Below, piece after piece: positions 30,202-64,000 of a DNA stretch of 64,000 nt. The DNA is taken from NCBI GenBank assembly GCA_046537785.1, contig JBKHKD010000002.1, positions 71,082 to 135,081 of the forward strand, read 5' to 3'. The notes under the pieces are model-generated. The model was not told where the DNA came from. It searched no databases and saw only the letters and a program-made list of their open reading frames with translations. Position 1 is the stretch's first letter. The number at the start of each line of letters is the position of its first letter. Position numbers and translations under genes: made by a program. The DNA comes from Actinomycetota bacterium (GTDB taxonomy: Bacteria; Actinomycetota; Acidimicrobiia; Spongiisociales; ZC4RG35).

Positions 30202-30215
30202 GGAAGGGGCCAGCA

Positions 30216-40655: not shown

Positions 40656-40705
40656 CCGACTCCATCGTTGAGAATCAGTCTCACCCCCTCGCTACTCTGC
40701 GGAGA

Positions 40706-42712: not shown

Positions 42713-42746
42713 GCAGTCCGAAGCGTCGACGGCTGGTCTAACGGTG

Positions 42747-42935
42747 CTAGTTGGATTCGCTCGATGCAGGCTGATCACCATCTGGAATGGGCGCACCATT
42801 CTTCCGCACCTTCGCCCACACTGCTCTCGAACCTTTGCGTACGTACTGCCAGCCAAGCCCGACTGCGGCCAATGCGGCAAGACCAGCTTGGAGCAATGCA
42901 CTCCCCGTTACCGGATCCAGATAACCAAAGACCAT
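42747..42935 (-). CDS. Possible small single-TM protein in a low-GC patch downstream of paralog 2
   Basis: MVFGYLDPVTGSALLQAGLAALAAVGLGWQYV… Only a weak case. Confidence 0.25.
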   Translation of the reverse strand: MVFGYLDPVTGSALLQAGLAALAAVGLGWQYVRKGSRAVWAKVRKNGAPIPDGDQPASSESN

Positions 42936-42957
42936 ATGACACCTCTTCAAACTGCGT

Positions 42958-44532: not shown

Positions 44533-44640
44533 GCGTTTCTATTCTGATAGGGAACCATCAAGGAAACTGGCGATTCGGTCGTTAGAGAGTTTGGTGAGTT
44601 TCGGGATCAGGCCACGTTTGTTGCCAACCAGGGAGATCTG

Positions 44641-45951: not shown

Positions 45952-47057
45952 TCGAGGGCCAGGAGGCCATCCGGCTGTTGGAAGGGGCGGGGGCACGACT
46001 GTTCGTCGGAGTGCCCGATTCGCTCATGAAGGGCTTTTGCAGTGCCCTGGGTGACCATCGAGGTCCGGGTCGTCATGTGGTGGCCGCCAACGAGGGAGGG
46101 GCGGTGGCGACTGCGGCGGGCCATTATCTGGCGACAGGACGGCCGGCTGTGGTCTACATGCAGAATTCCGGCTTGGGAAACGCAGCGAGCCCCCTCGTCT
46201 CGCTGGCGAGCCGGCGGGTTTATGGGATCCCGATGCTGCTGATCATCGGATGGAGGGGTGAGCCCGGGACCGTGGATGAGCCGCAGCATGATCACCAGGG
46301 TGATATCACGACTCAGCAGCTCGAGCTTTTGGAGATATCGATATCGGTGGCGGAGCCCGACGACGATGGTTCCGTGTTCGTAGCTGCATACGAGAGGGCC
46401 CTGTCGGGTCAGGTACCCGTGGCAGTTCTGGTCCGCAAAGGAGTATTCGTTCCGCCACCCGAGATCGCTCCCGGTGGCGGATTGACACGGATGTCTGCGA
46501 TGGAGATGCTTCTCCAGCAGCTTCCGACAGACACCGCCTACGTAGCGACAACCGGATACACGGGACGCGAGTTGGCCCTCCTCCGCGCGAAGAGGGAAGA
46601 GAGTTGGTCCTCGGATCTGCTGATGGTGGGATCGATGGGACACGCCGCAGCGATCGCGCTCGGCATCGCCGTAGGGACCCCCGGACGACTCGTTTGCTGT
46701 TTCGATGGAGACGGAGCCGTGGTGATGCATATGGGGACGCTCGCCGCCGTTGGCGCCGAGCAACCTGCGAATCTCCTCCACGTGGTCATGAACAATGGAG
46801 TCCATGAGTCGGTTGGGGGACAACCGTCGGCTCTGAGGGATGCCGACATCCCCGCTTTGGCGCGCAGCTTGGGTTATGTCAGCGCGGAGGTAGCGACAGA
46901 TAAGGACGAATTGGCCAGCGCCGTCGACCGTCTTCACACAGATTCCGGCCCGAATCTGATCGAGGTGAGGATCAGTTCCGGGACGGTGGACGGCTTGCCG
47001 CGACCGTCGAGTCTCCGTGAGCGTGTCGTCGACATGAGGGATTGGTTGAGTGGCTGA
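45948..47057 (+). CDS. ppd: Phosphonopyruvate decarboxylase (ThDP-dependent)
   Basis: 369 aa; ThDP-binding [13 protein letters not shown]…NNG. ATGA-coupled to ppm. Confidence 0.8.
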
Positions 47058-48165
47058 GGTAACCCGAGGCATTGGCGCGCTCGAGACAAGCTTCAGGTCA
47101 GTCGATGGTTCGCCGTGGATCGTGATGAGTGGGAGGACTTCTTTCTCCGCGTCAGGCGCAGAGGCTTCTCTCGAGGATTTCCTCCAATCGGGGGCCAGAC
47201 GCCTGGTTGTCGAAGGGCCGCTTCCGACGACCGACGAGGTCGACCGTCTGGCGGCGGAGGTCGGGTCGAGTAGACCGCGAGCCATACTCGCCGTTGGGGG
47301 CGGACTGGTCATCGACACGATGAAGGCGCTTGCTCTTGCCCTGAGCACAGGAGGGAGTGCGCAGTCATTGCTCAACGGGAGCGCCGTACCGAGCGATGTC
47401 GAGATCCACACAGTTGCTGCCCCCACGACGGCCGGCTCAGGGGCAGAGCGCACGCCATTCGCGGTGCTGTACCACGATGGTGTCAAGCACTCGGTCGACG
47501 ATCCTCGTCTTCTACCGGATCATTCAATAATCGACCCGGCGTTGAGCAGTTCGGCACCTCGCCACGTGGCAGCCTCTGCGGCACTCGACGCTTTGGCTCA
47601 CTCCGTCGAGTCGATGTGGGCATGCCGGTCGACCGTCGAATCTATTGAGGTTGCGGCTCAGGCCCTAGGGCAAATCGTGGACAACATCGAAACTGGCGTT
47701 GTGGGTGAGTCGGCCCCTGCCCGGGAGACCCTCATGTATGCGGCTTCGGACGCGGGCTCCGCCATCGCGGTGTCGAGGACCACCGCGGCCCACGCCCTCT
47801 CGTACCACCTCACCGCTCGACATGGCGTACCTCATGGCCACGCCGTGGCGCTCATGTTGGGACGGGTCATTGCTTTCAACGGTGAAGTCGACGAGTCAAC
47901 CGTGCTTGATCAGCGCGGTCTGGCCCACGTAGCGTCCGTCGCAGCGCGGATCTCTGCTCTTCTCGGCATCGATGAACCGGTCGACGCCCCAGAGCGATTG
48001 CGTGACCTCGTCGCATCGCTGGGTTTGGCGCCGCGAGCGGATGAGGCGGCAGGCGCCATGGTCGATAGGGAGCGATGGATGACTGAAGTGAATGAGCAGC
48101 GACTCGGCAACAATCCACGACGTATCAACCGTGACGATCTATTAGCAATCGTGTGTGACGCATGA
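47050..48165 (+). CDS. Group III iron-containing alcohol dehydrogenase, putative phosphonoacetaldehyde reductase (PhpC/FomC-like)
   Basis: Fe-ADH fold (AVGGGLVIDTMKA … His-rich metal ligands ALAHSVESMWACRSTVESIEVAAQALGQIVDN…AAHALSYHLTARHGVPHGHAV). The GTG start overlaps ppd. Confidence 0.7.
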   Translation: MAEVTRGIGALETSFRSVDGSPWIVMSGRTSFSASGAEASLEDFLQSGARRLVVEGPLPTTDEVDRLAAEVGSSRPRAILAVGGGLVIDTMKALALALSTGGSAQSLLNGSAVPSDVEIHTVAAPTTAGSGAERTPFAVLYHDGVKHSVDDPRLLPDHSIIDPALSSSAPRHVAASAALDALAHSVESMWACRSTVESIEVAAQALGQIVDNIETGVVGESAPARETLMYAASDAGSAIAVSRTTAAHALSYHLTARHGVPHGHAVALMLGRVIAFNGEVDESTVLDQRGLAHVASVAARISALLGIDEPVDAPERLRDLVASLGLAPRADEAAGAMVDRERWMTEVNEQRLGNNPRRINRDDLLAIVCDA

Positions 48166-49316
48166 GAAAACTTCTCGAGCGCACCCGTCTGGCCATGGCG
48201 GAATCCAACAACATGGGCAAGTTGCTCACCCTCCCCAATGATGACCGTGCGGTCGTTGTCTACGCCGAAGATACGTTTAGCTACATCCAGCTCAAGGGAT
48301 ACCTGCGTGCCCTCTGGGTGAACCACGGGGTGCCTTATCAATACGTGACCTCGGCTCCCGATGATCCTCTTCTCGAAGATCCTCCCCCCGGGGCCACCAC
48401 CTGGTTCATTCGCGAACAACTGGCACGGATGATGAGCTCACTCGAGTGTGGCATCTTCATCACAACCATGCCCGATCTGGGAAACTTCCAGGTTCCCCGG
48501 CCGAAGTCTGGGAGGGCTTTGTATGTCTTCCACTCGCTCAACAGCACTCATACCGCCTATCGCTCTGGCGCATTCGACAACTATGACCAATTCATGTGCA
48601 CGGGACCGCATCACATCGAGGAGTTGGGTCGACTGCGGCCCGACTCGAATCCGGTGCTTTCTGAGGTGGGCTACTACAAGCTCGACCTGATCAGGGAAGA
48701 ACACGCAGATTGGCTTGAACGTGACGCGATCGAGGAGGATCTCGTCCTCCTTGCCCCATCGTGGGGGCGCCATAATCTTCTCGAGGCACACGGAAGTGAG
48801 ATCATCGCCTCGCTGGTAACTTCCGGTTTCCGGGTGATCGTCCGGCCCCATCCGCAATTCTTTCACTCGCTCTATCCCGAAGGCGCCGGGGTGATCGGGC
48901 GCCTCCAAGAGGAGTTTGGCGTCGACCATTCGGTCGAATTCGAGCTCAACATCGACTCTCAAGACTCATTCCATCGCAGCGCCCTGATGATCAGCGACTG
49001 GTCCGGTGCCGCCTACGAGTACGCGCTGGGGACACATCGGCGGGTCCTGTTCATCGATACCCCACAGAAGATCTTCAACCCGGGCTGGGAGCAGATCGGT
49101 CTCGCCAGCTTCGAGGGAGAGATGCGAGACCAGGTGGGTGAAGTGCTGGCCACCGATTCGGTGCATTCCACCGGGAACGTTGCCTACGACGTGATCCGAC
49201 GAAGCCGCTACTCCCGCTCCGACCTCGCGGAATTGGCGAGCCAAAAAATCTTCAACCTGGATGAGAGCGCCAGGGTCGGTGCCGAAGTAATCGCAGATAC
49301 CCTCTCTCGCTCATGA
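48162..49316 (+). CDS. TagF/TagB-like CDP-alcohol phosphotransferase family protein
   Basis: LLAPSWG (compare the TagF YAPTWR motif), VIVRPHP and ISDWSGAAYEYA (compare DYSS). ATGA-coupled upstream and downstream. Confidence 0.6.
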   Translation: MRKLLERTRLAMAESNNMGKLLTLPNDDRAVVVYAEDTFSYIQLKGYLRALWVNHGVPYQYVTSAPDDPLLEDPPPGATTWFIREQLARMMSSLECGIFITTMPDLGNFQVPRPKSGRALYVFHSLNSTHTAYRSGAFDNYDQFMCTGPHHIEELGRLRPDSNPVLSEVGYYKLDLIREEHADWLERDAIEEDLVLLAPSWGRHNLLEAHGSEIIASLVTSGFRVIVRPHPQFFHSLYPEGAGVIGRLQEEFGVDHSVEFELNIDSQDSFHRSALMISDWSGAAYEYALGTHRRVLFIDTPQKIFNPGWEQIGLASFEGEMRDQVGEVLATDSVHSTGNVAYDVIRRSRYSRSDLAELASQKIFNLDESARVGAEVIADTLSRS

Positions 49317-50860
49317 CTTTCCGAGACCCGGATCTGTCCGTGCCTCCGCGGCGGCTTCACTGGGTGGACTTTGCCCTCATCGCGATACCGGCCTTCCAAT
49401 TGCCACTTTTGGTCGTCGCTGAGAATGGTATCGGTATTGGACATCCGGAGCTTCTGTTGTTCTTCGGCGGTCTGGTATGGGGGTTAGGAGCGCTCATTCT
49501 CGTTGTCGTGCGCCGGCTCGGTGTCCCTGGCTCGGTCTCGGTACTCGGAGCGTGGCTCTGTGTCTACCTGTTCATGAACACTGGGGCGATTCCCGATAGG
49601 TTCGGATATCCACTCGGGCTGCTCGTGACTCTCGGGACTCTCACCATCTTGCTCTATCTGGTGTCTCAGAGGCCAGAGATCCGTAGTCGGCTCGTCCTAG
49701 GTCTAGCGAGTGTCCTGCTGCTGGCCGAGATACTCATCACCGGGTATGCGACCTTCGCCGACTTTGGGGAAAGTCGGGTCGCTTCTAGTCCGAGCTCGGT
49801 CGACGTCGAACTCGAGCAGAAGCCCGACGTGGTGATGATCATTGCGGACGCTTACGCGGGCGTAGATGGCTTGAGTCGATATTTCGACGTCGATTCACGA
49901 GTGAAGAACACGTACTCGATGAGCGGATTCTGGGTTCCAGACTTGGCATTCTCTCCATACGCAAGTACCGACACCGCACTCTCGACGATGCTGGACATGA
50001 GCTATCCCCTTACTGCCGGACCGGGCATAACTCGTGCGACAAGGCGGGATCTGTACAGGCTGATCGGAGGCGACAACCGCGTGGTCGATGTCTTTCGACA
50101 AAACGAATACCAGGTCACCATGATCGAATCCGGTTGGAGCGGATCGACCTGTGGTGATGTGATCGATACCTGTCCGAGCCCATTTATCGATGAGAGTGTT
50201 TATATCATGCTCGCCGAGACTTGGATTGGCGATCTCGTCCTAGACAGGTTTGGCTACGCGTTCACGGTGGGTACTCGGTCGTCGATGTCATGGCTGGATG
50301 ACAATCTCGTCGAACTGGCGACCGACGAGAAGCCGGACTTCGTTTTTGCCCATCTCGGTATACCGCATCCACCAATGTTCCTCGACTCGGATTGTGAGCT
50401 GCAGGTGACCCCGGACCGGAACGGTGTGACCATGCAGCGACGAGACGTTCCAACCGACGACAGGAAGAAGCTCTATCTCGAGCAGGCAGCGTGTGTCGAT
50501 TCGTTCGTCACGTCACTCGCCGACTCATTGCCGAATGATGTTGTGTTGATACTGACCGGCGACCATGGGACCGACTCGCACCACCAACTGGCAGAGCATC
50601 CGGAGGATTGGTCGACTGACATGATTCGCGAACGATTGAACACGATGTTTGCCTTTCGCGGTCCCGAGGAATGCCGACCGCCCGAGCCCGTTCTCACGGC
50701 CGACCTCTTCCGGCATCTGTTCACCTGCCTGAGTGACGAATCATTGCCGGTGCCACCGCAACAGTTGTACATCTATGCCGCTCTGGAGATCGATGGGGCA
50801 CCCTCACCGATCGTCGAGGTGGAGCCATCGGTGATCGCTGAACTTGTCGGTGGGAGCTGA
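49313..50860 (+). CDS. Membrane-anchored alkaline-phosphatase-superfamily enzyme, paralog 3
   Basis: N-terminal TM segments; KPDVVMIIADAYAGVDG, FVFAHLGIPHPPMF and ILTGDHGTDS. Last gene of the phosphonate operon. Confidence 0.7.
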   Translation: MTFRDPDLSVPPRRLHWVDFALIAIPAFQLPLLVVAENGIGIGHPELLLFFGGLVWGLGALILVVVRRLGVPGSVSVLGAWLCVYLFMNTGAIPDRFGYPLGLLVTLGTLTILLYLVSQRPEIRSRLVLGLASVLLLAEILITGYATFADFGESRVASSPSSVDVELEQKPDVVMIIADAYAGVDGLSRYFDVDSRVKNTYSMSGFWVPDLAFSPYASTDTALSTMLDMSYPLTAGPGITRATRRDLYRLIGGDNRVVDVFRQNEYQVTMIESGWSGSTCGDVIDTCPSPFIDESVYIMLAETWIGDLVLDRFGYAFTVGTRSSMSWLDDNLVELATDEKPDFVFAHLGIPHPPMFLDSDCELQVTPDRNGVTMQRRDVPTDDRKKLYLEQAACVDSFVTSLADSLPNDVVLILTGDHGTDSHHQLAEHPEDWSTDMIRERLNTMFAFRGPEECRPPEPVLTADLFRHLFTCLSDESLPVPPQQLYIYAALEIDGAPSPIVEVEPSVIAELVGGS

Positions 50861-51289
50861 AGAGCTTGGACTTGACCACGGCGGTCTGACGTAAGGGCGC
50901 TACCTAGGGCACGCGGTCTACAAGATCCATCCGGATCATAGGTTCCCCCTGTCGCATGGGGTGTCTGCCGGGAGATACCCATCCCTTTGGGCGACCTGAG
51001 CAATAGGACGGCCACCCGGCGGATCGGTTCACACAGGATCCTCCGGCCAGCTGGCGTCAGCGGAGCGTTAGCGCGCATGACAAGCCTCCTTTTGGGTGTT
51101 GGTTGCGTGCAAGCACCGCACAACCAGGGAGGCTCAAACCCTCACAACGTCAACAACCTCTCTTAATCAGAACACCTAGCCGTTCTTGAGCGTGAGCCCG
51201 GGCTGTGGACAGGAGTGCAGGAAGCGGGATTGCTTCATGGGTGGAAGAGTCCTTTGGAAACAAGGGTTCCCGTTCGATAATGACGAGTT

Positions 51290-52672
51290 GTGAACAAGTT
51301 GTCCGTCCTCATGCCCGTCTACAACGAGTCGCGCACCTTGCGGACGATTGTCGCCAAGGTGCTTGCCTCACCGGTCGACGCTGAGATCGAGTTGGTCTGT
51401 GTAGATGATTGCTCGAAAGATGATTCTCTTGCGATTCTTCACGAGCTGGCAGAGGCCGATTCCCGGATCAGGGTCATTGCCCAGTCGGTGAACTTGGGCA
51501 AGGGCAAAGCGATCCGTACCGCTATCGGGCACATGACCGGCGATGTCGGGATCATCCAGGACGCCGACTTGGAGTATGACCCGAATGAGTACCCGCTCGT
51601 TCTGGCGCCGCTCCTGGAAGGACGAGCCGACGCAGTGTACGGCTCCCGGTTCGCCTCCAGCGAGCAGCGTCGTGTCCTCTTCTTCTGGCACGCGCTAGGC
51701 AACAAGCTGCTCACGCTCATGTCGAATATGGCCAACGACCTCAATCTCACCGACATGGAGACCTGCTACAAGGCGGTTCGCGCCGACGTTCTCAAGGAGC
51801 TTCGACTCACCAGCGACCGGTTCGGGCTTGAGCCGGAGATCACCGCTCGCCTCGCCCAGTGGGGCGCCCGTATCTACGAGGTGCCGATCAGTTATCACGG
51901 ACGCACCTACGCCGAAGGCAAGAACATCGGTTGGAGAGACGGAATGGAAGCACTCTGGCTCATCTTTAAGTTCCGGCTTCTCGACACTCGAGCGACGAAC
52001 GAAGACTCGGTCGTCACGAGGCAGAGCCTGGGGAGTGCCCCCCGCTTCCGCCGCTGGATCCTGTCATCGTTTGACGACTACCTGAGAGACACCGTGCTCG
52101 AGATCAATGCCGGGCCGGGGCACACTACTAGCCATCTGCTCGACGCAAGGAGACTGATCGTCTCTGATGAGGAGCTGGTCCACGTCGAATCGCTGCGTCG
52201 TCGTTTCGGTCACTTGGAGAACGTCGAGGTGATGACGAGCGAAGAGTTGGATCACTCAGACGTGCGGGTCTCGTCGGCTCTGGTGTTCGACGGGTTACAA
52301 CGTGCCGGCGAGCCCAAGGAGTTCTTGGCCTCGGTAGCGTCTCATGTCGAGTCGGGCGGTCATGTTCTCATCCAGGTGCCCGCGGGCCCTGAGCTCTTCG
52401 GACCCACCGACAGGGCCGCTGGGCATGTGAAACGCTTCGACCGCCAAGATATCGAAGATGTCGTTCGCGCCGCCGGGTTGGAGCTCGTGGATATTGCCGA
52501 GGTGAACCGTCTCGGAGCCCTCGGCTGGAGGCTCCATCATTGGCTGGGGAAGGGGCGCATCACGACGTCGGAGGCTCGTCTCTTCGACCTCCTGGTTCCG
52601 CTGGTACGCTCGCTCGACCCCATCTTCCCCGGCCGTGGCCTCAGTCTGCTGGTGGTGGCTCGATCGCCTTGA
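51290..52672 (+). CDS. GT2 (DPM1/GtrB-like polyprenyl-phosphate glycosyltransferase) fused to a C-terminal class-I SAM methyltransferase-like domain
   Basis: LSVLMPVYNE, CVDDCSKD and IQDADLEYDP (GT-A DxD), then VLEINAGPGHTT, a Rossmann-type MTase motif I. Confidence 0.7.
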   Translation: MNKLSVLMPVYNESRTLRTIVAKVLASPVDAEIELVCVDDCSKDDSLAILHELAEADSRIRVIAQSVNLGKGKAIRTAIGHMTGDVGIIQDADLEYDPNEYPLVLAPLLEGRADAVYGSRFASSEQRRVLFFWHALGNKLLTLMSNMANDLNLTDMETCYKAVRADVLKELRLTSDRFGLEPEITARLAQWGARIYEVPISYHGRTYAEGKNIGWRDGMEALWLIFKFRLLDTRATNEDSVVTRQSLGSAPRFRRWILSSFDDYLRDTVLEINAGPGHTTSHLLDARRLIVSDEELVHVESLRRRFGHLENVEVMTSEELDHSDVRVSSALVFDGLQRAGEPKEFLASVASHVESGGHVLIQVPAGPELFGPTDRAAGHVKRFDRQDIEDVVRAAGLELVDIAEVNRLGALGWRLHHWLGKGRITTSEARLFDLLVPLVRSLDPIFPGRGLSLLVVARSP

Positions 52673-52743
52673 CCGAAGTCCCTGTGGAACGGGCGCTCAG
52701 GCTCAAGTCGGCCTTGCCCCTGCCGATGGCATAACAGAGTCCT

Positions 52744-53484
52744 TTGCGTTGGGAGCACGCAATGTATCGAAATCTGAGAGTCATGGGCTTAGTACCTGTG
52801 CTCGATGAGGAGAAGAAGGTCGGTCTCGTTCTCGAGCGAGTCCCCACCGACGTCGTCGACCTGACCCTGGTGATCGATGACGGATCGACCGACGCCTCAG
52901 CTCAGGTAGCGCGCTCCAAAGGTGCCAAAGTGATCGAACTCGGGGCCACTGTCGGTGTCGGAGCAGCGATCAGGACCGGGTTCCAGTACGCGATCGCAGA
53001 AGGGTTCGATGTGGTCGTCGTGATGGCGGGAAATAACAAGGACTCCCCGGAGGAGATCCCGCTGCTCTTGGACGAATTGACCGATCGCCCGGCGGACTTG
53101 GTTCAGGGCTCCAGATGGTCGGGCGATGCTAGTGACTTCGGAGAGATGCCGGCCTATCGCAAGGTGGCCACACGCCTTCACCCGATGCTGTTCAATCTCA
53201 TCTCCCCCGTCAAGCTGACAGACACGACCAACGGCTTTCGGGCTGTCCGTACCAGCCTCCTCGCCGATGAGGACCTGAATCTCGATCAGAGCTGGCTCGA
53301 CGACTACGAACTCGAGGTCTATCTGCTCTATAGGGCGGCCCAGCTCGGGTACGAGCTCTCCGAGGTCGGCGTCACCAAGAGATACCCTCCGAAGGCATTG
53401 GGGCAGACAAAAATGAAGCCGATATCGGGATGGTGGTCGATCCTTCGTCCGCTGGTTCTGCTGGCCGTACGGCTCAAGAGGTGA
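52744..53484 (+). CDS. GT2 family glycosyltransferase (DPM1-like)
   Basis: LVIDDGSTD and VVVVMAGNNKDSPEE…LVQGSRW. Confidence 0.75.
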   Translation: MRWEHAMYRNLRVMGLVPVLDEEKKVGLVLERVPTDVVDLTLVIDDGSTDASAQVARSKGAKVIELGATVGVGAAIRTGFQYAIAEGFDVVVVMAGNNKDSPEEIPLLLDELTDRPADLVQGSRWSGDASDFGEMPAYRKVATRLHPMLFNLISPVKLTDTTNGFRAVRTSLLADEDLNLDQSWLDDYELEVYLLYRAAQLGYELSEVGVTKRYPPKALGQTKMKPISGWWSILRPLVLLAVRLKR

Positions 53485-53499
53485 GGAAGTGACTCGAAA

Positions 53500-54531
53500 A
53501 TGATGACAGGAATCGGAGTCGTGGGTGCCGGTCATTGGGGTCCCCACCTGATACGAAACTTCAACGATCATCTGTCCAGTCAGGTCCTCTGGGTAGCGGA
53601 GAGGGATGAGCGTCGCAAGAAGGGCATCTCGGAACGGTTTCCGGGGACGGCAGTCACTGCTGATGTGGATGAGATTCTGTCGGATGACCGGGTCGATGCC
53701 GTCATCGTGGCGACACCGACTTCTACCCACGCTGCGATTGTTCAAGATGCGCTGGAAGCCGACAAGCACGTACTAGTGGAAAAGCCCATCGCCTATGGTC
53801 TTGAGGACTCCATCGCCCTTTGCGAGATGGCCGACAGCCGAGGTCTCACGTTGATGGTGGGGCACGTGTTCCTGTTCAACCCAGCGTTCCGTGCCGCACG
53901 GGATTACATCCACCGGGGCGACTTGGGGCTCATCAGATACCTGTCAATGGTTCGTACCAATCTGGGTCCGGTTCGCACCGACGTGAACGCTGCTTGGGAC
54001 TTGGCCAGCCACGACGTTTCCATCGCGAACTATTGGCTGGATGCGCTGCCTAAGAGTGTCAGTGCAAGAGGAGGGAGTTGGCTGAACGAAGGGATCGACG
54101 ACGTCGTCTTTGCGACTCTCTCCTATCCGGATGATGTGCTCGTGCACATCGAAGCTTCGTGGCTGAATCCGAGAAAGCGACGTCTGGTGGCGGCTATCGG
54201 GTCTGATCGCATGTTGACGGTGGACGACATGGATCTGAACGAGCCAATTCGCCTTTATGACAAGGGGGTCCTAGAGCGCCCGAAGGAGGACTTCTCTGAT
54301 ACCTTCGCCGGTTTCCGCAATCAGATCAGAGAGGGAGAGGTGCGTATCCCCCATGTCACCGGAGGCGAGCCCTTGCGAACCGAGTGTGACGAGTTTTTGC
54401 GCCGCATCGCGGGCAGCGATGACACCCTTTCCGATGGATGGGAGGGAGCACGGGTCGTCGCGGTACTCGACGCGATTGACCGATCGATCGTTGAGGGCGG
54501 TGCCTCCATCGTCGTGGAGAAGATTCGATGA
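53500..54531 (+). CDS. Gfo/Idh/MocA-family NAD(P)-dependent sugar oxidoreductase (WbpB-like)
   Basis: GIGVVGAGHWGPHLIRNF Rossmann motif plus a Gfo/Idh/MocA C-terminal domain. Confidence 0.85.
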   Translation: MMTGIGVVGAGHWGPHLIRNFNDHLSSQVLWVAERDERRKKGISERFPGTAVTADVDEILSDDRVDAVIVATPTSTHAAIVQDALEADKHVLVEKPIAYGLEDSIALCEMADSRGLTLMVGHVFLFNPAFRAARDYIHRGDLGLIRYLSMVRTNLGPVRTDVNAAWDLASHDVSIANYWLDALPKSVSARGGSWLNEGIDDVVFATLSYPDDVLVHIEASWLNPRKRRLVAAIGSDRMLTVDDMDLNEPIRLYDKGVLERPKEDFSDTFAGFRNQIREGEVRIPHVTGGEPLRTECDEFLRRIAGSDDTLSDGWEGARVVAVLDAIDRSIVEGGASIVVEKIR

Positions 54532-55631
54532 AGGTTCCCCTGGTCGATCTGGCCTGGCAACACCGGCAGATCGCGGATGAGGTCGAGCGGGGCCTGCATG
54601 AGGTGATGGAGACCACTGCCTTCATTCACGGGCCACAACTACATTCGTTCGAGGAGGCGTTCGCGTTGTTTCTCGGAGTCGAGCACTGTGTCGGTGTGGG
54701 GAGCGGGACCGATGCCCTCGAGTTGACGGTGAGAGCCCTCGACATCGGGCCCGGAGATGTCGTTGTGGTCCCGGCCAACAGCTTCATCGCCAGCGCCCTC
54801 GGCATCCTCCGGGCCGGAGCCGACGTCGTCCTGGTCGATTGCCATCCCGACACCTACCTGATGGACGTGGCGCGGGTGGCCGACCTCATCGACTCCAAGG
54901 TGAGGGCGATCATGCCCGTCCATCTCTACGGTCAGATCGCGCCGATCGAGGACATGCCCGACTTGCCTGAGAGGGTGGTGGTCATCGAGGATGCCGCGCA
55001 ATCGCAAGGAGCCACCCGTAACGGGGAAGGGTCAGGCTCGTTCGGTGTGGCGGCTGCGACGAGCTTCTATCCCGGTAAGAACATCGGGGCCTACGGCGAC
55101 GGGGGGGCGGTGCTGACGGACGATGACGCCCTCGCCGCCCAGGTGAGGAAGTTGGGCAACTGGGGGTCGGCCGAGAAGTACCACCATCCCGAGTTGGGGT
55201 TCAACTCCCGACTCGACACCGTTCAGGCGGTCATCCTCCAGGCGAAGTTAAGCCGCCTCGCGGAGTGGAACGGGATGCGCCGCGCCGCCGCCGAGTGGTA
55301 TCGAGAGGCTCTCCACGACGTGGAGAAGGTGTTGCTTCCACTCACACTGGAGGGGAACGAGCACATCTGGCATCTCTTCGTGATTCGGGTACCAAACCGG
55401 GATGCGGTGTTGGCGCGGTTACATGGGCGTGGTGTGGGCGCCGGCATCCATTATCCGGTTCCAATGCACCTCCAGGGAGCGCTATCTGATCTGGGCTATC
55501 GCAGAGGTGACTTTCCGGTAACAGAGAGAGTTGCCGGTGAGATCCTTTCACTGCCCATCTACCCGGGCATCACCGAAGCCCAGCAACAGTACGTGGTCGA
55601 GTCCCTGAAAGAGGCATTGGCGTTCTCCTGA
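54528..55631 (+). CDS. DegT/DnrJ/EryC1/StrS-family PLP sugar aminotransferase (WbpE-like)
   Basis: VPLVDL…, GVGSGTDAL and the family Lys region; 367 aa; ATGA-coupled. Confidence 0.9.
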   Translation: MKVPLVDLAWQHRQIADEVERGLHEVMETTAFIHGPQLHSFEEAFALFLGVEHCVGVGSGTDALELTVRALDIGPGDVVVVPANSFIASALGILRAGADVVLVDCHPDTYLMDVARVADLIDSKVRAIMPVHLYGQIAPIEDMPDLPERVVVIEDAAQSQGATRNGEGSGSFGVAAATSFYPGKNIGAYGDGGAVLTDDDALAAQVRKLGNWGSAEKYHHPELGFNSRLDTVQAVILQAKLSRLAEWNGMRRAAAEWYREALHDVEKVLLPLTLEGNEHIWHLFVIRVPNRDAVLARLHGRGVGAGIHYPVPMHLQGALSDLGYRRGDFPVTERVAGEILSLPIYPGITEAQQQYVVESLKEALAFS

Positions 55632-55632
55632 C

Positions 55633-56199
55633 ATGGCCACGGACTATTTCGCCCACCCCACTGCTCTGGTCGAGACCGACGACGTCGGTTCGGGGAGCAG
55701 AGTCTGGGCTTTTGCCCACGTGATGGAAGGTGCGATCCTAGGACGGCATTGCAAGGTCGGAGACCATTCGTTCATTGAGGGCGGTGCGTCGCTGGGTGAT
55801 CGTGTGACTGTCAAGAACGGGTGTCTCATCTGGCACGGAGTACACATCGGCGACGATGTCTTCGTTGGTCCGAATGTCGTGTTCACCAACGACATGAGAC
55901 CTCGGGTTCGGTATCAGACGACTTCTCAGGAATGGCTGGACACCGAGGTAGGGGAGAGAGCTTCAATCGGGGCGAACTCGACGATCCTCTGCGGAATCCG
56001 CATCGGACGCAACGCGATGGTCGGGGCGGGGTCCGTCGTAACCAAGAGTGTGAAAGACCACGCCATGGTCGTGGGCAATCCGGCCCGACAGGTCGGCTGG
56101 GCGTGTGACTGCGGTGAGTCTCTCGATGGGGACCTTACATGTGCGGCATGCGGCCGCTTCTATCGAAAGGGCTTGAAGGGTTTGGAGGAAATCGAATGA
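55633..56199 (+). CDS. Hexapeptide-repeat (left-handed beta-helix) sugar N-acetyltransferase (WbpD-like) with C-terminal Cys4 ribbon
   Basis: Hexapeptide repeats (IGDDVFVGPNVVFTND…) and a CDCGESLDGDLTCAACGRFY tail. Confidence 0.8.
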   Translation: MATDYFAHPTALVETDDVGSGSRVWAFAHVMEGAILGRHCKVGDHSFIEGGASLGDRVTVKNGCLIWHGVHIGDDVFVGPNVVFTNDMRPRVRYQTTSQEWLDTEVGERASIGANSTILCGIRIGRNAMVGAGSVVTKSVKDHAMVVGNPARQVGWACDCGESLDGDLTCAACGRFYRKGLKGLEEIE

Positions 56200-57299
56200 A
56201 GCGATCGCTTGCTCTCCTGGCCCTCGTGGCCATGATCCTCAGCGCATTGGTGGTCGTTCGGCTCTTGGCGCTTCACGATTTCAACCCGACCACGACGATC
56301 AAGTTCGGCGAAGTCTTCGAAGAGCACAACGAGTATGCCGAGGAGTTGCTCGGTGAGGTGGTTCTTGCTCCTGAGGCCGGCCACGATGGCAAGTTCTTCT
56401 TCTCTCAGGCGATGGATCCGTTCTATCTGGAGCCTGAGGATCATGCGATCTATCTGGATCGCCCGAGTTACCGGGCGCAGAGGATGGCTTATCCCACCTT
56501 GGCCTCTTTGGGAGGGACTCTGGGGGCGCTTGGCACCGCTTGGGGTTTGATCGCGGTCAACATTGTGGCGATGGTGGTTGGCTCGGTGTATACGGGCCTC
56601 GCCGCCACCCGAATGAATCTGTCTCCATGGTTTGGCCTCGCCTTTCTCTTCAATCCAGGGATGATCGTCGAACTCGGCATCGACGGCGGTGGGGTAGTGG
56701 CCATGGCGGGGATGATGGCCGGCGTCTATTACATGCTCCAGGATCGAGTCTGGCTTGCTGCCGTTGCCCTCTCCATCGCGGCATTGGCCCGTGAGACGAT
56801 GCTCATCGCGGCGATAGGGCTGGCAGCCTTCATCCTCTTCCGCTGCCGAAGACTGGAGTGGAAGCTGGCGATGCCCGTAACCGTCGTTGGTGCTTGGTGG
56901 GTATACGTCCGCGCGCGACTCGACGAAGCGCTCGCCCAGGACACCCAGGCTCTGGCCCTCCCGTTTCAGGGTATTGCCGGAGCCTTCCGAGGGTGGGTGA
57001 GTTCGTCCGGAGATGCTCTCGACCTCGTGGTCGGATGTGTCGTTCTACTGGTCGCGCTTATGGTGGTCGTCCGGTCGGCAATATCACCCACTGCTCTCGG
57101 TTGGGCGGCGGCAGGCTTTGCCCTACTTGGCGTGATACTCTCCGAACCGGTCTGGGCAAAGTGGTTTGACTCGACCCGAGCCCTCGCCCCTGTTCTCACC
57201 GCCTACATCCTGATGGTGCCTGCCACCTCGCGGACCACCGCCACTCCTGAGGAGTTGCGTGAGTCGGAGATTCCCCTCTCCTCATCATCTTCGTCTTGA
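56196..57299 (+). CDS. Polytopic membrane protein, paralog A (possible GT-C-like glycosyltransferase or polymerase)
   Basis: Signal/TM MKRSLALLALVAMIL, then a periplasmic loop with GHDGKFFFSQAMDPFYLEPEDHAIYLDRPSYRAQRMAYP, then about 8 TM segments. ATGA-coupled to the acetyltransferase. Confidence 0.55.
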   Translation: MKRSLALLALVAMILSALVVVRLLALHDFNPTTTIKFGEVFEEHNEYAEELLGEVVLAPEAGHDGKFFFSQAMDPFYLEPEDHAIYLDRPSYRAQRMAYPTLASLGGTLGALGTAWGLIAVNIVAMVVGSVYTGLAATRMNLSPWFGLAFLFNPGMIVELGIDGGGVVAMAGMMAGVYYMLQDRVWLAAVALSIAALARETMLIAAIGLAAFILFRCRRLEWKLAMPVTVVGAWWVYVRARLDEALAQDTQALALPFQGIAGAFRGWVSSSGDALDLVVGCVVLLVALMVVVRSAISPTALGWAAAGFALLGVILSEPVWAKWFDSTRALAPVLTAYILMVPATSRTTATPEELRESEIPLSSSSSS

Positions 57300-57348
57300 T
57301 GCGTGAGTCAGGCATCGACAGGTCCGCCCATAGAGAGTCGGGTATCGC

Positions 57349-58452
57349 ATGACGTCCAATACGCCCGCGGGGCGCGTTCGAGGAGTGTTGGTGCTGGTTG
57401 CTCTGGTTGGGATCCTGTTGCCCCTGATGAGCGTCTTTAACGTACTCGAGCAGACAGGTTGGGACCCTTCGATACTCGTGTCCTTCGGTGAAGATGCCAG
57501 CCCCACGACCGAGTATGGAAAGGAGCGCCTCGGAGACGTCTCCCTCCGGGCGGGCCAAGGCCACGACGGCAAGTTCTTTTTCGTCCAGGCCAACGATCCG
57601 TGGGTGCTTGACCCCCAAGCCAACGCAATGGTCCTTGACCGTCCTCTTTACCGCAGCCAGCGAATGCTCTACCCAGTGCTGGCCGGTGGGGCGGGTTTGT
57701 TCGCGCCTGGGATGATCGTCTGGTCGATGCTGATCTTGAACCTGCTCGCCATGGGAGTGGGCACCTGGGTGGTTAGCCTCATCGCCATGGAGATGGGTGG
57801 CTCGCCTTGGGGTGGCCTCGCCTTCGCCTTGAACATCGGCTTCTTCAGCGAGATCAACATCGGGGGGGCAGGCGTCGTAGCGGCGGTCGCAGCCTTCGGC
57901 GCGGTGCTGATGTTTATGCGTCGTCGGACCGCGGCCGGGGTCGGTCTGCTCGTTGCAGCCGTTCTGGCTCGCGAGGCAATGTTGATTGCCGCTGCCGGAA
58001 TCGCCTTCTGGTTGTGGCTGAGGGGCCGACGCAAGCCGGCGATGATGACCGCCCTAATCCCGGGTCTTTGCGTCATCGCATGGGCCGGGTATTTGCGGCT
58101 CCGGATACGGGACGGTGCCGTCGCCTCTGAGGTGCAGGAGATCGGCTGGCCGTTCGTCGGCTTCGTCGAGGCCTTCGAGAGTTGGGTCGGCGACCCGATC
58201 GATCTGGCCGTCGGAGTCTCCATGATGTTGCTATTCGTCCTGTTCGCCCGTCGTGTTTTCATGAGCGGACACGTCGTGGGATGGGCGTTCCTAGGCTTTG
58301 TGTTTCTGGGTGTGGTATTCACCGAACAGGTTTGGCACTCGTACTTCGACATCACCCGGGCAGTGGCGCCCATCATCACGTCGTTCGTGCTACTGGTGTT
58401 TGTCGGAACCCGACACCACGACAGGCCACTGACTGCTTCAAAAGCCAAATAG
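57349..58452 (+). CDS. Polytopic membrane protein, paralog B
   Basis: Same architecture; loop GHDGKFFFVQANDPWVLDPQANAMVLDRPLYRSQRMLYP. Confidence 0.55.
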   Translation: MTSNTPAGRVRGVLVLVALVGILLPLMSVFNVLEQTGWDPSILVSFGEDASPTTEYGKERLGDVSLRAGQGHDGKFFFVQANDPWVLDPQANAMVLDRPLYRSQRMLYPVLAGGAGLFAPGMIVWSMLILNLLAMGVGTWVVSLIAMEMGGSPWGGLAFALNIGFFSEINIGGAGVVAAVAAFGAVLMFMRRRTAAGVGLLVAAVLAREAMLIAAAGIAFWLWLRGRRKPAMMTALIPGLCVIAWAGYLRLRIRDGAVASEVQEIGWPFVGFVEAFESWVGDPIDLAVGVSMMLLFVLFARRVFMSGHVVGWAFLGFVFLGVVFTEQVWHSYFDITRAVAPIITSFVLLVFVGTRHHDRPLTASKAK

Positions 58453-59625
58453 GGCACAGTCGAGATTAGCTGTTCCTATTCCTGCGCAGTCAGCGATGAA
58501 AATATATGAGAATTGAAGGAATATAGATACGAAGCCAGCGATATATATGAGAGTTCGGTATACCAGATCGGAGTGCGCCGCACGGCACGAGACTAGCCCC
58601 ACCGGGGTAAGAAGTGCAACTGCTTCGATAGCATAGCGATATCCATAGGGAAGCCCTCCCGAACTTCTGTTTAAGGTGACGTGGACGAGCAAATACAGGG
58701 CAGCTGCAAGCGGAGTCCATTTCACCCAATGCTCCTGAGCAGACCAGGCCTTGGGTAACAATAGCAAAGCTATTAGTAGCCATAAAGACCAGATAAGAAC
58801 GCCGTAGCGGGGTGAAAAGAGGGCAGTCCATAGATTCGGCAGGAACTCCGGCGCTCGTTCAGCTGACCCCAACGCTCCAGGTTGCCCACCACCGTACGCT
58901 GCCAAAGGGTTGAACGAGCCCCACAAGATTCGATTGTATGTGACGAGTAATAGGGCTCCGACGAAGGAGGGAATGCCTAATCGGATGAGCGGATGCCACG
59001 ACCGTCGGCTCCAACCGATACCGAGTCCAATGACAGCGACTATTACCGCGATGGGAGGGCGAATGAGGATCCCGATTCCAAATGCGATGCCTGCCCACCA
59101 AAGCCGAAGTTCTGTCAAGGCCCACACCCCCATGGCTACAGCGAGGACTGCTGGTCCATGCGGCCAGATCTGATCAGCCGCTATCGACCATATTGGGGTC
59201 CCCAAGCCCACCAGGACGAGAGTGGGCATGCCAAGCTTGGGATCGATCTTGATCATCGACTTTGCCAGAACCAGGACGGCTATGGCTGATGTAATGACGG
59301 CTAACAGGGTGGCAGGCCAGACAACGAACTCGGTAACTAGGGGCGATACCAGGGCGTACGCCAAGGCAGTCAGCCCAACCAACCCAGGCGCCCGATTGCT
59401 GTAAAGCCCTCCGATCTCAGCTTCGTATACCCACGGTCCTTGCGTGATTGTTTGTGAGAGGTCGAGATCTCCATGCTCCACCAGATGCCATGCAGGGAAG
59501 GCAGTTGCTATGGAATCTGCAGTCTGGGATGCCTGATTCCACGACGCCGATAGAGCGAACAGGAGTGTGAGCAGGAGCCATCCGGCCCACAACGATCGGC
59601 GCATCGAGGGGAGTGTGGCAGTCAT
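58438..59625 (-). CDS. Polytopic membrane protein, GT-C-like (hypothetical)
   Basis: About 10 TM segments. Start chosen at an internal ATG (MTATLPSMRRSLWAGWLLL…) to avoid antisense overlap with uvrA. Confidence 0.5.
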   Translation of the reverse strand: MTATLPSMRRSLWAGWLLLTLLFALSASWNQASQTADSIATAFPAWHLVEHGDLDLSQTITQGPWVYEAEIGGLYSNRAPGLVGLTALAYALVSPLVTEFVVWPATLLAVITSAIAVLVLAKSMIKIDPKLGMPTLVLVGLGTPIWSIAADQIWPHGPAVLAVAMGVWALTELRLWWAGIAFGIGILIRPPIAVIVAVIGLGIGWSRRSWHPLIRLGIPSFVGALLLVTYNRILWGSFNPLAAYGGGQPGALGSAERAPEFLPNLWTALFSPRYGVLIWSLWLLIALLLLPKAWSAQEHWVKWTPLAAALYLLVHVTLNRSSGGLPYGYRYAIEAVALLTPVGLVSCRAAHSDLVYRTLIYIAGFVSIFLQFSYIFIADCAGIGTANLDCALFGF

Positions 59626-59754
59626 CGGAGGGACATAAAAGCGCGTGATCTCTTCCGACGACCGACATATCAGTCGTGCAGTTGTTAGGATCAGAACATG
59701 TGTTCGAAGGTGATGCGCATTACACTTGCGTAACTTCCGACCACCAGGCGAGCT

Positions 59755-62577
59755 TTGTCCACCGAATCGATACTCATCAGGGGCGCCCGTGAGCACAACC
59801 TCAAGGACCTCACGGTCGAGCTGCCCCGTGAGAAGCTGATCCTCTTCACGGGGATCTCCGGATCCGGGAAGTCGTCTCTGGCCTTTGACACCATCTATGC
59901 CGAAGGCCAGCGCCGTTATGTCGAGTCGCTTTCCGCGTACGCCCGGCAGTTCCTCGGGCAGATGGACAAGCCCGACGTCGACTTCATCGACGGGCTATCG
60001 CCAGCGATATCGATCGACCAGAAGACGGCATCACGGAACCCGCGGTCGACGGTGGGCACCGTCACCGAGGTCCACGACTACCTCCGCCTCCTCTACGCCA
60101 GAATCGGCACCGCCCACTGTCCCAACGACGGGACACCGGTGGAAAGACAGACACCCCAGCAGATCGTCGACCGGATCCTTGAGCTGGAGGAGGGGACCAA
60201 GTTCCAGGTGCTTGCACCCGTGGTGCGCGGCCGCAAAGGCGAGTACGAGGGGCTGTTGAAGGAGCTGAGCGAGAAGGGCTTCGCCCGGGCCCGCATCGAC
60301 GGGGAGGTGCGAGACCTCACCGAGGACATTCGCCTCGACCGCTACTACCAGCACACGATCGAGGTCATCGTCGACCGTCTCGTGCGCAAAGACGGGATGG
60401 AGCAGCGGCTCACCCAGTCACTGGAGACGGCGCTGTCGCTCACCGAAGGCGTCGCCGACATCGAGATCGTCGACGGCTCCACGCTCACCTTCTCCCAGCA
60501 CCTGGCCTGCTCGGAGTGCGGGCTGTCCTTCGAGGACCTCCAGCCCCGCAACTTCTCATTCAACAGCCCCTACGGGGCGTGCCCTGAGTGCTCCGGGATC
60601 GGCACCAGGTTCCAGGTCGACGCCGACCTGGTGATCGCCGACCCCGACCTGGCGCTCAGCGAAGGCGCCATCCCCATGTGGTCTTCCAACCGAATGCGCT
60701 ACTACCACCGGCTGCTCAACGGTCTGGCGGGGGCCCTCGGGTTCTCCATGGACACGCCGTGGAAGGACCTGTCTGAGGACATGAGGGAGAAGATCCTCTA
60801 CGGGCTGGGCGAGGAGAAGATCACCGTGGAGTACACCAACAGGTTCGGGAGGAAGCGCCGCTGGGACGCCAACTTCGAAGGAGCCATTCCGTTCCTCAAC
60901 AGGAGGCACGAGTCGGCCGAGACGGACAACGCCCGGGAGTACTACCAGGAGTTCATGGCCGAGGTGCCCTGTGATGCATGTAACGGCGGGCGCCTCAACC
61001 CTATCTCGCTTGCGGTCACCATCGAGGAGCGCAACATCGCCGAGGTCTCCGACCTCAGTCTTGCCGAGGCACACGAGTTCTTCGATCGGTTGGAGCTGTC
61101 GGAGCGTGACGCCCACATCGCCGAGCGGGTGCTGAAAGAGATTCGGTCGCGGATCAAGTTCCTCCTCGACGTAGGTCTCGACTACCTGACTCTGTCCCGC
61201 TCGGCCGCCACGCTCGCCGGGGGCGAGGCGCAGCGGATCCGTCTCGCCACCCAGATCGGGTCCGGCCTCGTGGGTGTCCTCTACATCCTGGACGAGCCCT
61301 CGATCGGCCTCCACCAGCGAGACAACAAACGGCTCATCGAGACCCTGCTCCGTCTCCGCGACCTGGGCAACACGCTCATAGTGGTGGAGCACGACGAGGA
61401 AACGATCAGGGTTGCCGATCACATCGTCGACATCGGCCCGGGCGCAGGAGAGCACGGCGGGCACGTCGTAGTGCAGGGAACACTCGAAGACGTGAAAGAC
61501 AACTCCGACTCGCTCACCGGGGACTATCTGGCGGGGCGTCGTCAGATCGAGACCCCGCTGCTCCGTCGACAGGGAAATGGGAGCTCCATCAACGTTTTCG
61601 GCGCCTCAGAGCACAACCTGCAGGGGATCGACGTCGAGTTCCCTCTCGGCGTCTTCACCGCCGTCACCGGCGTGTCAGGGTCGGGAAAATCGACACTGGT
61701 GGAGGAAATCCTCTGGAAGACCCTCGCGGCCAAGGTGAACCGGGCCAGGGTCGTGCCCGGGCGGCACAAGAAGATCGAGGGCATCGACCTCATCGACAAG
61801 GCCATCGACATCGACCAGTCGCCCATCGGACGGACACCACGTTCCAACCCGGCCACATACACCAAGGTCTTCGATCACATCAGGAGTCTTTTCTCCCAGA
61901 CCCAGGAGGCCCGGGCCCGGGGTTACAAGCCGGGACGGTTCTCCTTCAACGTCTCCGGAGGGCGCTGCGAGGCCTGCAAGGGGGACGGGACCATCAAGAT
62001 CGAGATGCACTTCCTCCCCGACGTCTACGTGCCCTGCGAGGTGTGCGGGGGGAAGCGGTACAACCGGGAGACCCTCGAGATCCTGTGGAAAGGGCACAAC
62101 ATCTCCGACGTTCTCGAAATGTCCGTCGAGGATGCCCTCGAGTTCTTCGAGAACCAGCCCAAGATAATCCGGGTGCTCCAGACCCTCTACGACGTTGGTC
62201 TCGGCTATATCCGGCTCGGCCAGCCGGCGACGACACTGTCCGGTGGCGAAGCGCAGCGGATCAAGCTGGCGTCGGAGCTGGGCAAGCGTTCGACGGGCAA
62301 GACCCTCTACATCCTCGACGAGCCGACCACGGGCCTCCACTTCGAGGACATCAGGAAGTTGTTGCAGGTGCTGCAGCGTCTCGTGGACGCCGGCAACACA
62401 GTCATCGTCATCGAGCACAACCTCGACGTGGTGAAGTCGGTCGACCACATCATCGACCTCGGGCCCGAAGGGGGCAGCGGGGGAGGGCGGATAGTGGCCA
62501 TCGGCAGTCCCGAGGAAGTGGCCTCCGTCACCGAGAGCTACACCGGCAAATTCTTGCGGGAGATGGTGGGTACTTAG
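59755..62577 (+). CDS. uvrA: Excinuclease ABC subunit A
   Basis: 940 aa with two ABC ATPase modules ([25 protein letters not shown]), zinc fingers (CxxC) and YARQF. TTG start. Confidence 0.95.
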
Positions 62578-62624
62578 GCCGGCCAATCCATGGCCCGGCA
62601 CGGGAACACGATGAGAATGGGAGC

Positions 62625-63587
62625 ATGACCCGCAAGCACCGTCTTGAGATAGCGCTGGTCGTGCTCATCGTCATCACGGCCGCCTTCTACCTGCGATGGG
62701 ATGTGATCCCTTCCTTCCCCGAACGCCACGTCGATGCGTTCGAGGAGAACTACGAGGTTGACGTCGGTGATCCGGGACGCTGGTTCTCTGCCTGGGCGTT
62801 GGGAGACGGGCAGGCCTACGCACTGATCGGCGTTGACCCGACCGGTCGTACTCTCGCACAGAGGATTCCGGAGGCTGGCTATCGGTTCGCCCGGGCCGGA
62901 TATGGGTGGGCGGTTTGGGCAGTTGCGCTGGGCCAGCCCGACGTCGTGCCTTACGTCCTGGCCGCCGTTGGTGCGCTCGCTGTCATGGGTGTCGTGTTCC
63001 TGGCGATCCGACTTCGCGATCGTCTGGGTCCTCGCTCATGGTTGATAGTCCTCAACCCAGCGTTGTATATCGGATTTGCTGCTGACACGTCCGAACCCAT
63101 GGGGATCCTCCTACTCGCGGCGGTGTTGGCAGGCCGGGGATGGTTGGCTGCCGGCCTCATCGGATTGACGCGCCCAACGTTCCTGGTGGCACTCTGGGGC
63201 CGGCGCAGACACCTTGCCACCGGGGTCGCCGCCGCCCTCGCTCTCGCCTTCTACAGCTTCCTGGCGTTTGGAGTCGACGCGATGATCCCATCAGGTGGTC
63301 GCCTCGGGCTCCCACTCCACGCGTATTTGCAACACCTCAGTGTCGGCGGGCTCCTTCTTGCGATTGCCGCCATCGGCACTTTGGCGATCGGGGTGAGAGT
63401 CCGGGACTGGGCCTGGATCCTTGCTGGGACGTTTGTCCTCTGTTTCGGCCTCGACGTTCTCCGGGATCCGGTCAACGCCTGGAGAGCCGCCGGCTTTCTC
63501 CCAGTCCTCTGGGCCTTTGGAGTCCACTATCGAATCGGCTCGAAGGGATCGCTTCAACCGGAACCGACAGCTGCCGATGTAGCCTGA
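62625..63587 (+). CDS. Hypothetical polytopic membrane protein
   Basis: 320 aa with about 8 TM segments. Start at internal ATG 62625; track ORF 62043 is an upstream extension overlapping uvrA. Confidence 0.5.
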   Translation: MTRKHRLEIALVVLIVITAAFYLRWDVIPSFPERHVDAFEENYEVDVGDPGRWFSAWALGDGQAYALIGVDPTGRTLAQRIPEAGYRFARAGYGWAVWAVALGQPDVVPYVLAAVGALAVMGVVFLAIRLRDRLGPRSWLIVLNPALYIGFAADTSEPMGILLLAAVLAGRGWLAAGLIGLTRPTFLVALWGRRRHLATGVAAALALAFYSFLAFGVDAMIPSGGRLGLPLHAYLQHLSVGGLLLAIAAIGTLAIGVRVRDWAWILAGTFVLCFGLDVLRDPVNAWRAAGFLPVLWAFGVHYRIGSKGSLQPEPTAADVA

Positions 63588-63609: not shown

Positions 63610-64000
63610 ATGTTCGACATGCGTAGAACCGCCCTTGGTGGGTTTCAGGAGTTTGAGGGCAAGCACGCCGTAGTTCTCGGTGGTGCCGGCTTCCTCGGCT
63701 CCCACGTGTGCACCTGGCTCCTCTACTCGGGTGCCCAGGTCACCTGTCTCGACAACCTGATCACCGGGAACGCCGGCAACGTGACCCACCTGATGGGCGA
63801 CAAGAGATTCCGCCTCATCGACTACGACGTCACCGACTACATGCATGTCCCCGGCGACGTCGACTACGTCCTCAACTTCGCCTCCCCTGCGTCGCCCGTC
63901 GACTATCTCAAGTGGCCGATCCACACTCTCAAGGTCGGCGCTTTCGGCACTCACAAAGGCCTGGGGCTGGCGCTCGACAAGGGAGCCACTTTCATGCTCG
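63610..64000 (+). CDS. NAD-dependent epimerase/dehydratase, UDP-glucuronate decarboxylase-like; N-terminal part, 3' end outside the window
   Basis: VVLGGAGFLGSHVCTWLL…VTCLDNLITGN…RFRLIDYDVTD, the UXS/RmlB-type Rossmann N-terminus. Partial CDS: no in-window stop; 3' end runs off the window. Confidence 0.8.
   Translation, partial: MFDMRRTALGGFQEFEGKHAVVLGGAGFLGSHVCTWLLYSGAQVTCLDNLITGNAGNVTHLMGDKRFRLIDYDVTDYMHVPGDVDYVLNFASPASPVDYLKWPIHTLKVGAFGTHKGLGLALDKGATFML

Follow-up and report, generated by a model that had tools for sequence, protein, structure and literature searches.

Two tandem genes encoding paralogous polytopic membrane proteins, here called A and B, were identified in a 64,000-nt stretch of DNA (the window) from an Actinomycetota bacterium of the class Acidimicrobiia (assembly GCA_046537785.1, contig JBKHKD010000002.1, positions 71,082 to 135,081 of the forward strand). 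Gene A (56196..57299, + strand) and gene B (57349..58452, + strand) each encode a protein of 367 aa, and both open reading frames (ORFs) lie exactly where the original prediction, made from the sequence without database searches, had placed them. The NCBI annotation of the source metagenome-assembled genome (MAG) contains the product of gene A (P0001) as a protein of 367 aa with 100% identity and coverage. A longer ATG start for A at position 56139 was rejected, since the homologs begin at MKRS and the NCBI product has 367 aa. The two proteins share 42% identity over 354 aa (BLASTP, E 5e-74), a similarity that, judged from the alignment, is far beyond chance and bears out the paralogy originally claimed. 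The start ATG of gene A overlaps the TGA of a hexapeptide acetyltransferase gene as ATGA (56196-56199), whereas 49 nt separate the stop of A from the start of B, and B has no ATGA coupling to any gene. The coupling proposed for both genes was therefore retained for A and dropped for B.

Both proteins contain the shared loop motif for which the pair had been singled out, in the order GHDGKFFF, DP ten residues on and then LDRPxYRxQRMxYP. The motif of A occupies residues 62-100 (56379..56495, + strand; GHDGKFFFSQAMDP...LDRPSYRAQRMAYP) in a predicted extracytoplasmic loop that includes D64, the proposed catalytic base. The motif of B occupies residues 71-109 (57559..57675, + strand; GHDGKFFFVQANDP...LDRPLYRSQRMLYP) and includes the B-type signature residues N82 and S103, which are equivalent to M73 and A94 of A, respectively.

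The loop motif is nearly invariant across more than 100 homologs. The invariant positions in 63 aligned homologs are G62, H63, D64, G65, D74, P75, D88, Y92, R93, R96, Y99 and P100 of the motif and N122, G129, E200, W234, P256, G259, R328 and P332 elsewhere in the protein. D64, P75 and R96 are still invariant in 68 more distant full-length members. The conservation check that had been suggested thus came out in favor of the motif, and its invariance across close and distant homologs argues that it is real and under strong constraint. In an alignment of 110 sequences, 33 positions are conserved at 95% or more; 22 of these are in predicted extracytoplasmic loops and the remainder within helices, with none in cytoplasmic loops. 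Loop 1 contains 16 of the 22 extracytoplasmic positions, and the others are R199, P256, G259, W267, V319 and R328. The topology assumed here follows the helices of the structural model described below, with the N-terminus (K2, R3) placed inside.

Predicted fold and sequence family

An AlphaFold2 model of A was built from the 63-sequence alignment and has a mean pLDDT (predicted local distance difference test) of 93.5 and a pTM (predicted template modeling score) of 0.90. The model contains a first transmembrane (TM) helix at residues 2-25, an 85-aa loop at residues 26-110 and then about nine TM helices, in line with the one TM, loop of roughly 80 aa and about eight TMs of the original prediction. 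Short helices are present in loop 1 at residues 65-73, 80-86, 90-93 and 98-103. This polytopic architecture is that of the GT-C (glycosyltransferase C) superfamily, the members of which have about 8-13 TM helices with a conserved helical core. Foldseek matched the model to GT-C families at a probability near 1; the E-values were weak, however (best 6.7e-3), and the TM-scores were ~0.45. No Wzy, WaaL or SEDS chain was found among the top structural matches, and no transporter fold competed with GT-C. The structural comparison with GT-C and Wzy/ligase folds that had been recommended therefore answered for GT-C, and the confident match to a transporter family that had been named as decisive against the idea did not turn up. 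A GT-C fold of both A and B is supported by this model.

The position of D64 in the model is immediately before the short helix 65-73 of loop 1. In PimE, the catalytic D58 is located at the tip of juxtamembrane helix 1 and corresponds to the Asp that serves in catalysis in ALG6, ArnT and PglB (PMC12041525). The donor phosphate of PimE is held by Lys and His, and the arch under which the donor enters PimE, ALG6 and ArnT is made by the TM7-TM8 loop (PMC12041525). By analogy, D64 of A (D73 in B) is proposed as the likely catalytic base, and Y92, R93, R96, R199 and R328 are candidates for holding the donor phosphate or sugar. The conserved residues P256 and G259 of A are in the TM7-TM8 loop, which is proposed to act as the donor-entry arch.

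Several sequence searches were carried out for A and B. A word-indexed search returned 119 homologs, all unnamed or “hypothetical”, and only one of them contains a Pfam domain (DUF2079). When 1.84 billion cluster representatives (clusters at 50% identity) were searched exhaustively with a profile, 4761 of them matched at E ≤ 1e-3 and 858 matched at E ≤ 1e-30. Nothing in Pfam matched A or B significantly, PIG-U (E 0.42) and DUF2079 (E 0.43) being at noise level, and no Pfam match at the gathering threshold was obtained to the established GT-C sequence families (PMT/GT39, PMT_2/GT83-like, STT3/GT66, GT87/DUF2029, PIG-U and DUF2079). No PDB sequence was matched by phmmer of A or by the profile searches.

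The NCBIfam family NF046093 (AZOBR_p60025 family cell surface glycopolymer formation protein) matches A (3e-37, 128.1 bits) and B (1.5e-29, 102.9 bits). Neither score reaches the curated cutoff of 150 bits, and A and B are therefore to be regarded as relatives of this family and not as members. The match spans the TM1-loop-TM region including the motif (profile positions 2-227 of 232), and the profile also matches all 68 sampled homologs. As the sole named sequence family to match A and B, NF046093 is by profile score their nearest named relative; its name derives from context only and carries no assigned fold or activity. The statement that the motif could not be placed in a named family thus held for Pfam but not for NCBIfam. 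A search of the literature on new GT-C families and on envelope enzymes of Acidimicrobiia returned nothing on the A/B family.

Two orthogroups and their sugar genes

The genes directly upstream of A and B encode putative enzymes of sugar synthesis and transfer, all on the + strand and identified by Pfam. A glycosyltransferase family 2 protein (GT2) of 460 aa that is fused to an S-adenosylmethionine (SAM)-methyltransferase-like domain is encoded at 51290..52672 (Glycos_transf_2, 4e-31; Methyltransf_23, 1.5e-6). A short GT2 of 246 aa (52744..53484; Glycos_transf_2) is the first gene of the module that ends with A and is followed by genes for a GFO/IDH/MocA 3-dehydrogenase-like oxidoreductase (53500..54531), a DegT aminotransferase (54528..55631) and a hexapeptide N-acetyltransferase (Hexapep, 55633..56199). 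The best NCBIfam match of the GFO/IDH/MocA gene is UDP (uridine diphosphate)-N-acetylglucosamine 3-dehydrogenase (1.3e-45, below cutoff). The succession of 3-dehydrogenase, aminotransferase and acetyltransferase corresponds to the classical WbpB/WbpE/WbpD-type route to a 2,3-diacetamido-2,3-dideoxy-hexose nucleotide, and the three genes are predicted to make UDP-2,3-diacetamido-2,3-dideoxy-hexose.

The best NCBIfam matches of the short GT2 are AglJ, PpgS and dolichyl-phosphate hexose transferase, and ArnC is also among the best matches of the two GT2s, all below the equivalog cutoffs. The sole PDB relative of the short GT2 is the dolichol-phosphate mannose synthase 5mlz, and the closest PDB relatives of the GT2-methyltransferase fusion are ArnC, DPMS and GtrB. 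From these similarities both GT2s are predicted to be polyprenyl-phosphate sugar synthases. The fusion is a conserved upstream partner of B-type copies, an arrangement that suggests a methylated lipid-linked sugar.

The gene neighborhoods of the family were compared in a sample of one genome per GTDB species, which gave 79 loci, nearly all from MAGs of Acidimicrobiia or of unclassified Actinomycetota. Two or three tandem copies are present in 30 of the 79 loci, and a GT2 of the above types is located ≤6 kb upstream in 46 of the 67 loci that have enough flank. Copies scored as A-like (versus B-like) directly follow Hexapep or DegT in 12 cases and never the GT2-methyltransferase. B-like copies directly follow the GT2-methyltransferase (39 cases) or another copy of the family (23 cases) and never Hexapep or DegT. 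The same division appears in a neighbor-joining tree of 110 copies, where A falls in a clade of 15, 13 of them directly after Hexapep or DegT, and B in a separate large clade headed by the GT2-methyltransferase. The short GT2 heads the GFO-DegT-Hexapep-A run in loci with A-type copies, and in the loci L005 and L006 the genes follow one another undisturbed as GT2, GFO, DegT/Hexapep, A-type copy, GT2-methyltransferase and B-type copy.

Loci with a single type are common; some contain only an A-type copy with uvrA directly after it (e.g., L012) and others only a B-type copy (e.g., L013 and L019-L023). The many A-only and B-only loci indicate that A and B act independently. A recent tandem duplication was rejected as the origin of the pair because A and B belong to separate, widely distributed clades. 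On the evidence of tree and gene order, A (A-type) and B (B-type) are two anciently separated orthogroups, each linked to its own putative lipid-sugar synthase. The original prediction had tied both genes to the diacetamido-sugar genes; this link applies to A only, whereas B is part of a second module that contains another GT2. The two clades have different fixed residues at six positions (A/B: N30/D, M73/N, H83/N, A94/S, W235/A and L301/V), and the first four of them are in loop 1 beside invariant residues, a pattern to be expected of clades with different donors or acceptors.

Proposed function and alternative explanations

We consider it probable that A and B are extracytoplasmic GT-C glycosyltransferases that use D64 (or its equivalent) as base, each completing a lipid-carrier glycosylation module of its own. 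The most likely role of the two enzymes would be to attach a different sugar each to a cell-surface polymer on the outer side of the membrane. Indirect support for a lipid-phosphate-linked donor and for transfer on the extracytoplasmic face comes from the neighboring DPMS/ArnC/GtrB-like GT2s and from the restriction of conserved loop residues to the predicted outer loops. In the A module, the 3-dehydrogenase, aminotransferase and acetyltransferase would convert UDP-N-acetylglucosamine to the UDP-linked diacetamido sugar, which the short GT2 would load onto polyprenyl phosphate at the cytoplasmic face. The lipid-linked sugar would then be flipped across the membrane and passed by A to a cell-surface glycopolymer or glycoprotein. 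In the B module, the GT2-methyltransferase fusion would make a second polyprenyl-phosphate sugar, possibly methylated, which B would take as its donor. For catalysis, the first juxtamembrane helix of loop 1 would present D64 (D73 in B) at its tip as the base, with Y92, R93, R96, R199 and R328 placed on the donor phosphate.

A number of observations weigh against this proposal. D64 is equated with the GT-C catalytic Asp by secondary-structure position and conservation only, and it is located ~38 residues past TM1, farther than in most GT-Cs. About a third of the loci have no nearby GT2, and the genomes behind the co-occurrence counts are related, so that the cases counted are not independent of each other. 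The matches of the GT2s and the 3-dehydrogenase are well below the equivalog cutoffs, so the sugar identities are guesses. No GtrA, SMR or MATE flippase gene was found in the island around A and B, and no small multi-TM ORF is present at 44-64 kb of the window; its sole MATE gene (14849..16156) is 40 kb away. A literature search by the NF046093 family name found no biochemical or genetic data, nor anything else, for any member. In addition, a divergent clade of the family (L054, 9995..11038; L061, 9956..11074) has isocitrate-lyase-like and other metabolic genes as neighbors and lacks nearby GT2 or sugar genes, which indicates that not every member of the family sits in a glycan cluster.

Other explanations of the pair were also considered. 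A and B may have kept the GT-C fold without being glycosyltransferases, either as a lipid- or glycan-binding scaffold of the PIGU/GAB1 type or as transferases of a non-sugar group, e.g., a phosphonate or phosphoglycerol head group. The same fold is found in PIGU and GAB1, which are non-glycosyltransferase subunits of the glycosylphosphatidylinositol (GPI) transamidase, so a non-catalytic or non-sugar role keeps a low probability. We regard it as unlikely, since catalytic GT-Cs typically have such a constellation of invariant Asp, Arg and Tyr residues on the outer face, which counts for a catalytic role, and since the linkage to a GT2 resembling polyprenyl-phosphate sugar synthases is specific to each orthogroup. 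Transfer of a non-sugar group is further opposed by the phosphonate genes, which occur with the family in only 3 of the 79 loci.

The original prediction had named, besides GT-C glycosyltransferases, “some polymerases” as enzymes with this kind of loop. A and B would then be Wzy-like repeat-unit polymerases or O-antigen-ligase-like enzymes that act on polyprenyl-diphosphate-linked oligosaccharides and not on monophosphate-linked single sugars. Neither the sequence nor the fold places them in these groups, as the structural matches listed above include no such chain at the top and Pfam gives no match to such families; this reading is quite improbable, and of the two suggestions the GT-C one drew support from a strong fold match and from gene context. 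The tandem arrangement itself could also reflect a complex instead of two pathways, with A and B forming an obligate heterodimer on one substrate as in Pmt1-Pmt2 or EmbA-EmbB. Such a dimer is very improbable in view of the many genomes with one type only and of the association of each type with its own GT2.

Two independent GT-C glycosyltransferases thus remain our preferred reading, from which a more specific and more tentative proposal can be derived. The A/B family may be a new GT-C family at the CAZy level, the two orthogroups of which decorate a wall glycopolymer or surface protein of Acidimicrobiia with a diacetamido-hexose from a polyprenyl monophosphate donor and with the perhaps methylated sugar of the GT2-methyltransferase, in a system that works without a dedicated flippase; we hold this to be possible rather than probable. 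To our knowledge, a donor consisting of a diacetamido sugar on a polyprenyl monophosphate carrier has not been described so far.

Soils, oceans and wastewater contain abundant Acidimicrobiia, of which almost none have been cultured and the envelope chemistry of which is essentially uncharacterised. The A/B family is large (4761 clusters at 50% identity); Pfam has no model for it, no solved structure can be related to it by sequence and its members carry no assigned activity. Its placement among the GT-Cs singles out one Asp as a candidate for catalysis, and each orthogroup has a defined genetic partner. As six clade-specific residues, of which four are in loop 1, separate the A-type from the B-type proteins, they offer a natural test case for how donor specificity is encoded in GT-Cs.

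The glycan island and comparison with known systems

A third, distant paralog of 320 aa is encoded after uvrA (62625..63587, + strand). It matches NF046093 (9.6e-13) and contains the motif LGDG...DP...YRFAR. A longer ORF for this gene (62043..63587) was dismissed as an artefact, since 194 codons at its start overlap the 3' end of uvrA. When the families of the third paralog and of A/B were compared profile to profile (hhalign), the probability was 98.2% and the E-value 2.7e-14, with the following elements aligned (A/B versus third paralog): GHDG/LGDG, DP/DP, YRxQR/YRFAR, NPG/NPA, D163/D154, R199/R183 and R328/R287. In other loci a fourth, more distant paralog is located next on the minus strand. 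It was sought at the right end of the window, where instead the start of a short-chain dehydrogenase/reductase (SDR) gene was found (about 63610..64000, + strand). This gene, compared by eye only, resembles UDP-glucuronate decarboxylase/UDP-xylose synthase (GGAGFLGSH...) and runs off the window.

The genes uvrB (40544..42712) and uvrA (59755..62577) bracket a glycan island that extends over 40544..62577. The bracket is conserved in Acidimicrobiia, with uvrA ≤6 kb downstream of the family at 36 of 54 loci and uvrB on the upstream side at 27 of 40. The island and the region just beyond it encode four GT-C proteins, the two GT2s resembling polyprenyl-phosphate sugar synthases, a phosphonate gene set and three LtaS/sulfatase-like membrane proteins. 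One of the GT-C-fold enzymes, a 395-aa membrane protein unrelated to A and B, is encoded convergently on the minus strand (58438..59625). The phosphonate set (44641..50860) encodes a cytidylyltransferase-phosphoenolpyruvate (PEP) mutase fusion, phosphonopyruvate decarboxylase and an Fe-alcohol dehydrogenase, followed by a 384-aa protein and an LtaS/sulfatase-like membrane protein. Further LtaS/sulfatase-like genes are located at 39147..40655 and 42958..44532, both on the minus strand. Together, the phosphonate and LtaS/sulfatase-like genes point to a phosphonate-decorated surface polymer; no more than three other loci of the family have this set. A polytopic membrane protein of 448 aa (34452..35798, + strand), encoded directly after the Tad pilus genes (29011..34455), has no Pfam or NCBIfam match. 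Its relatives recur near the A/B family in nine loci.

The best structural matches of A are Pmt4, AglB and ArnT, which share 8-15% sequence identity with it. These proteins are much larger, contain extra luminal or periplasmic domains and differ from A and B in CAZy family, donor and acceptor. PimE, a polyprenyl-phosphomannose-dependent mannosyltransferase of GT-C_A (PDB 9dm5), has no detectable sequence similarity to A. Compared with PimE, loop 1 of A contains ~35 extra residues with short strands ahead of the Asp, and A and B differ from it in motif as well as in donor and acceptor.

Three-component systems composed of a GT2, a flippase and a GT-C are well established and include GtrB/GtrA/Gtr*, ArnC/ArnT and the GT136 system (PMC11127046); the mycobacterial PpgS with the GT-C Rv3779 is another such example (PMC3485146). 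The A and B modules resemble GtrA/GtrB/Gtr*, ArnC/ArnT, PpgS/Rv3779 and ORF15/ORF13/ORF12 (GT136) in that a GT2 synthase is encoded beside a GT-C that finishes the pathway outside the membrane (PMC11127046, PMC3485146), with two GT2s of the polyprenyl-phosphate sugar synthase type lying upstream of the pair in the window. Unlike these systems, the island contains no dedicated small flippase gene, two modules are nested side by side and one of the donors is predicted to be a diacetamido sugar. The A/B family is new and uncharacterised, yet it extends a well-known enzyme class and pathway logic rather than introducing a new principle.

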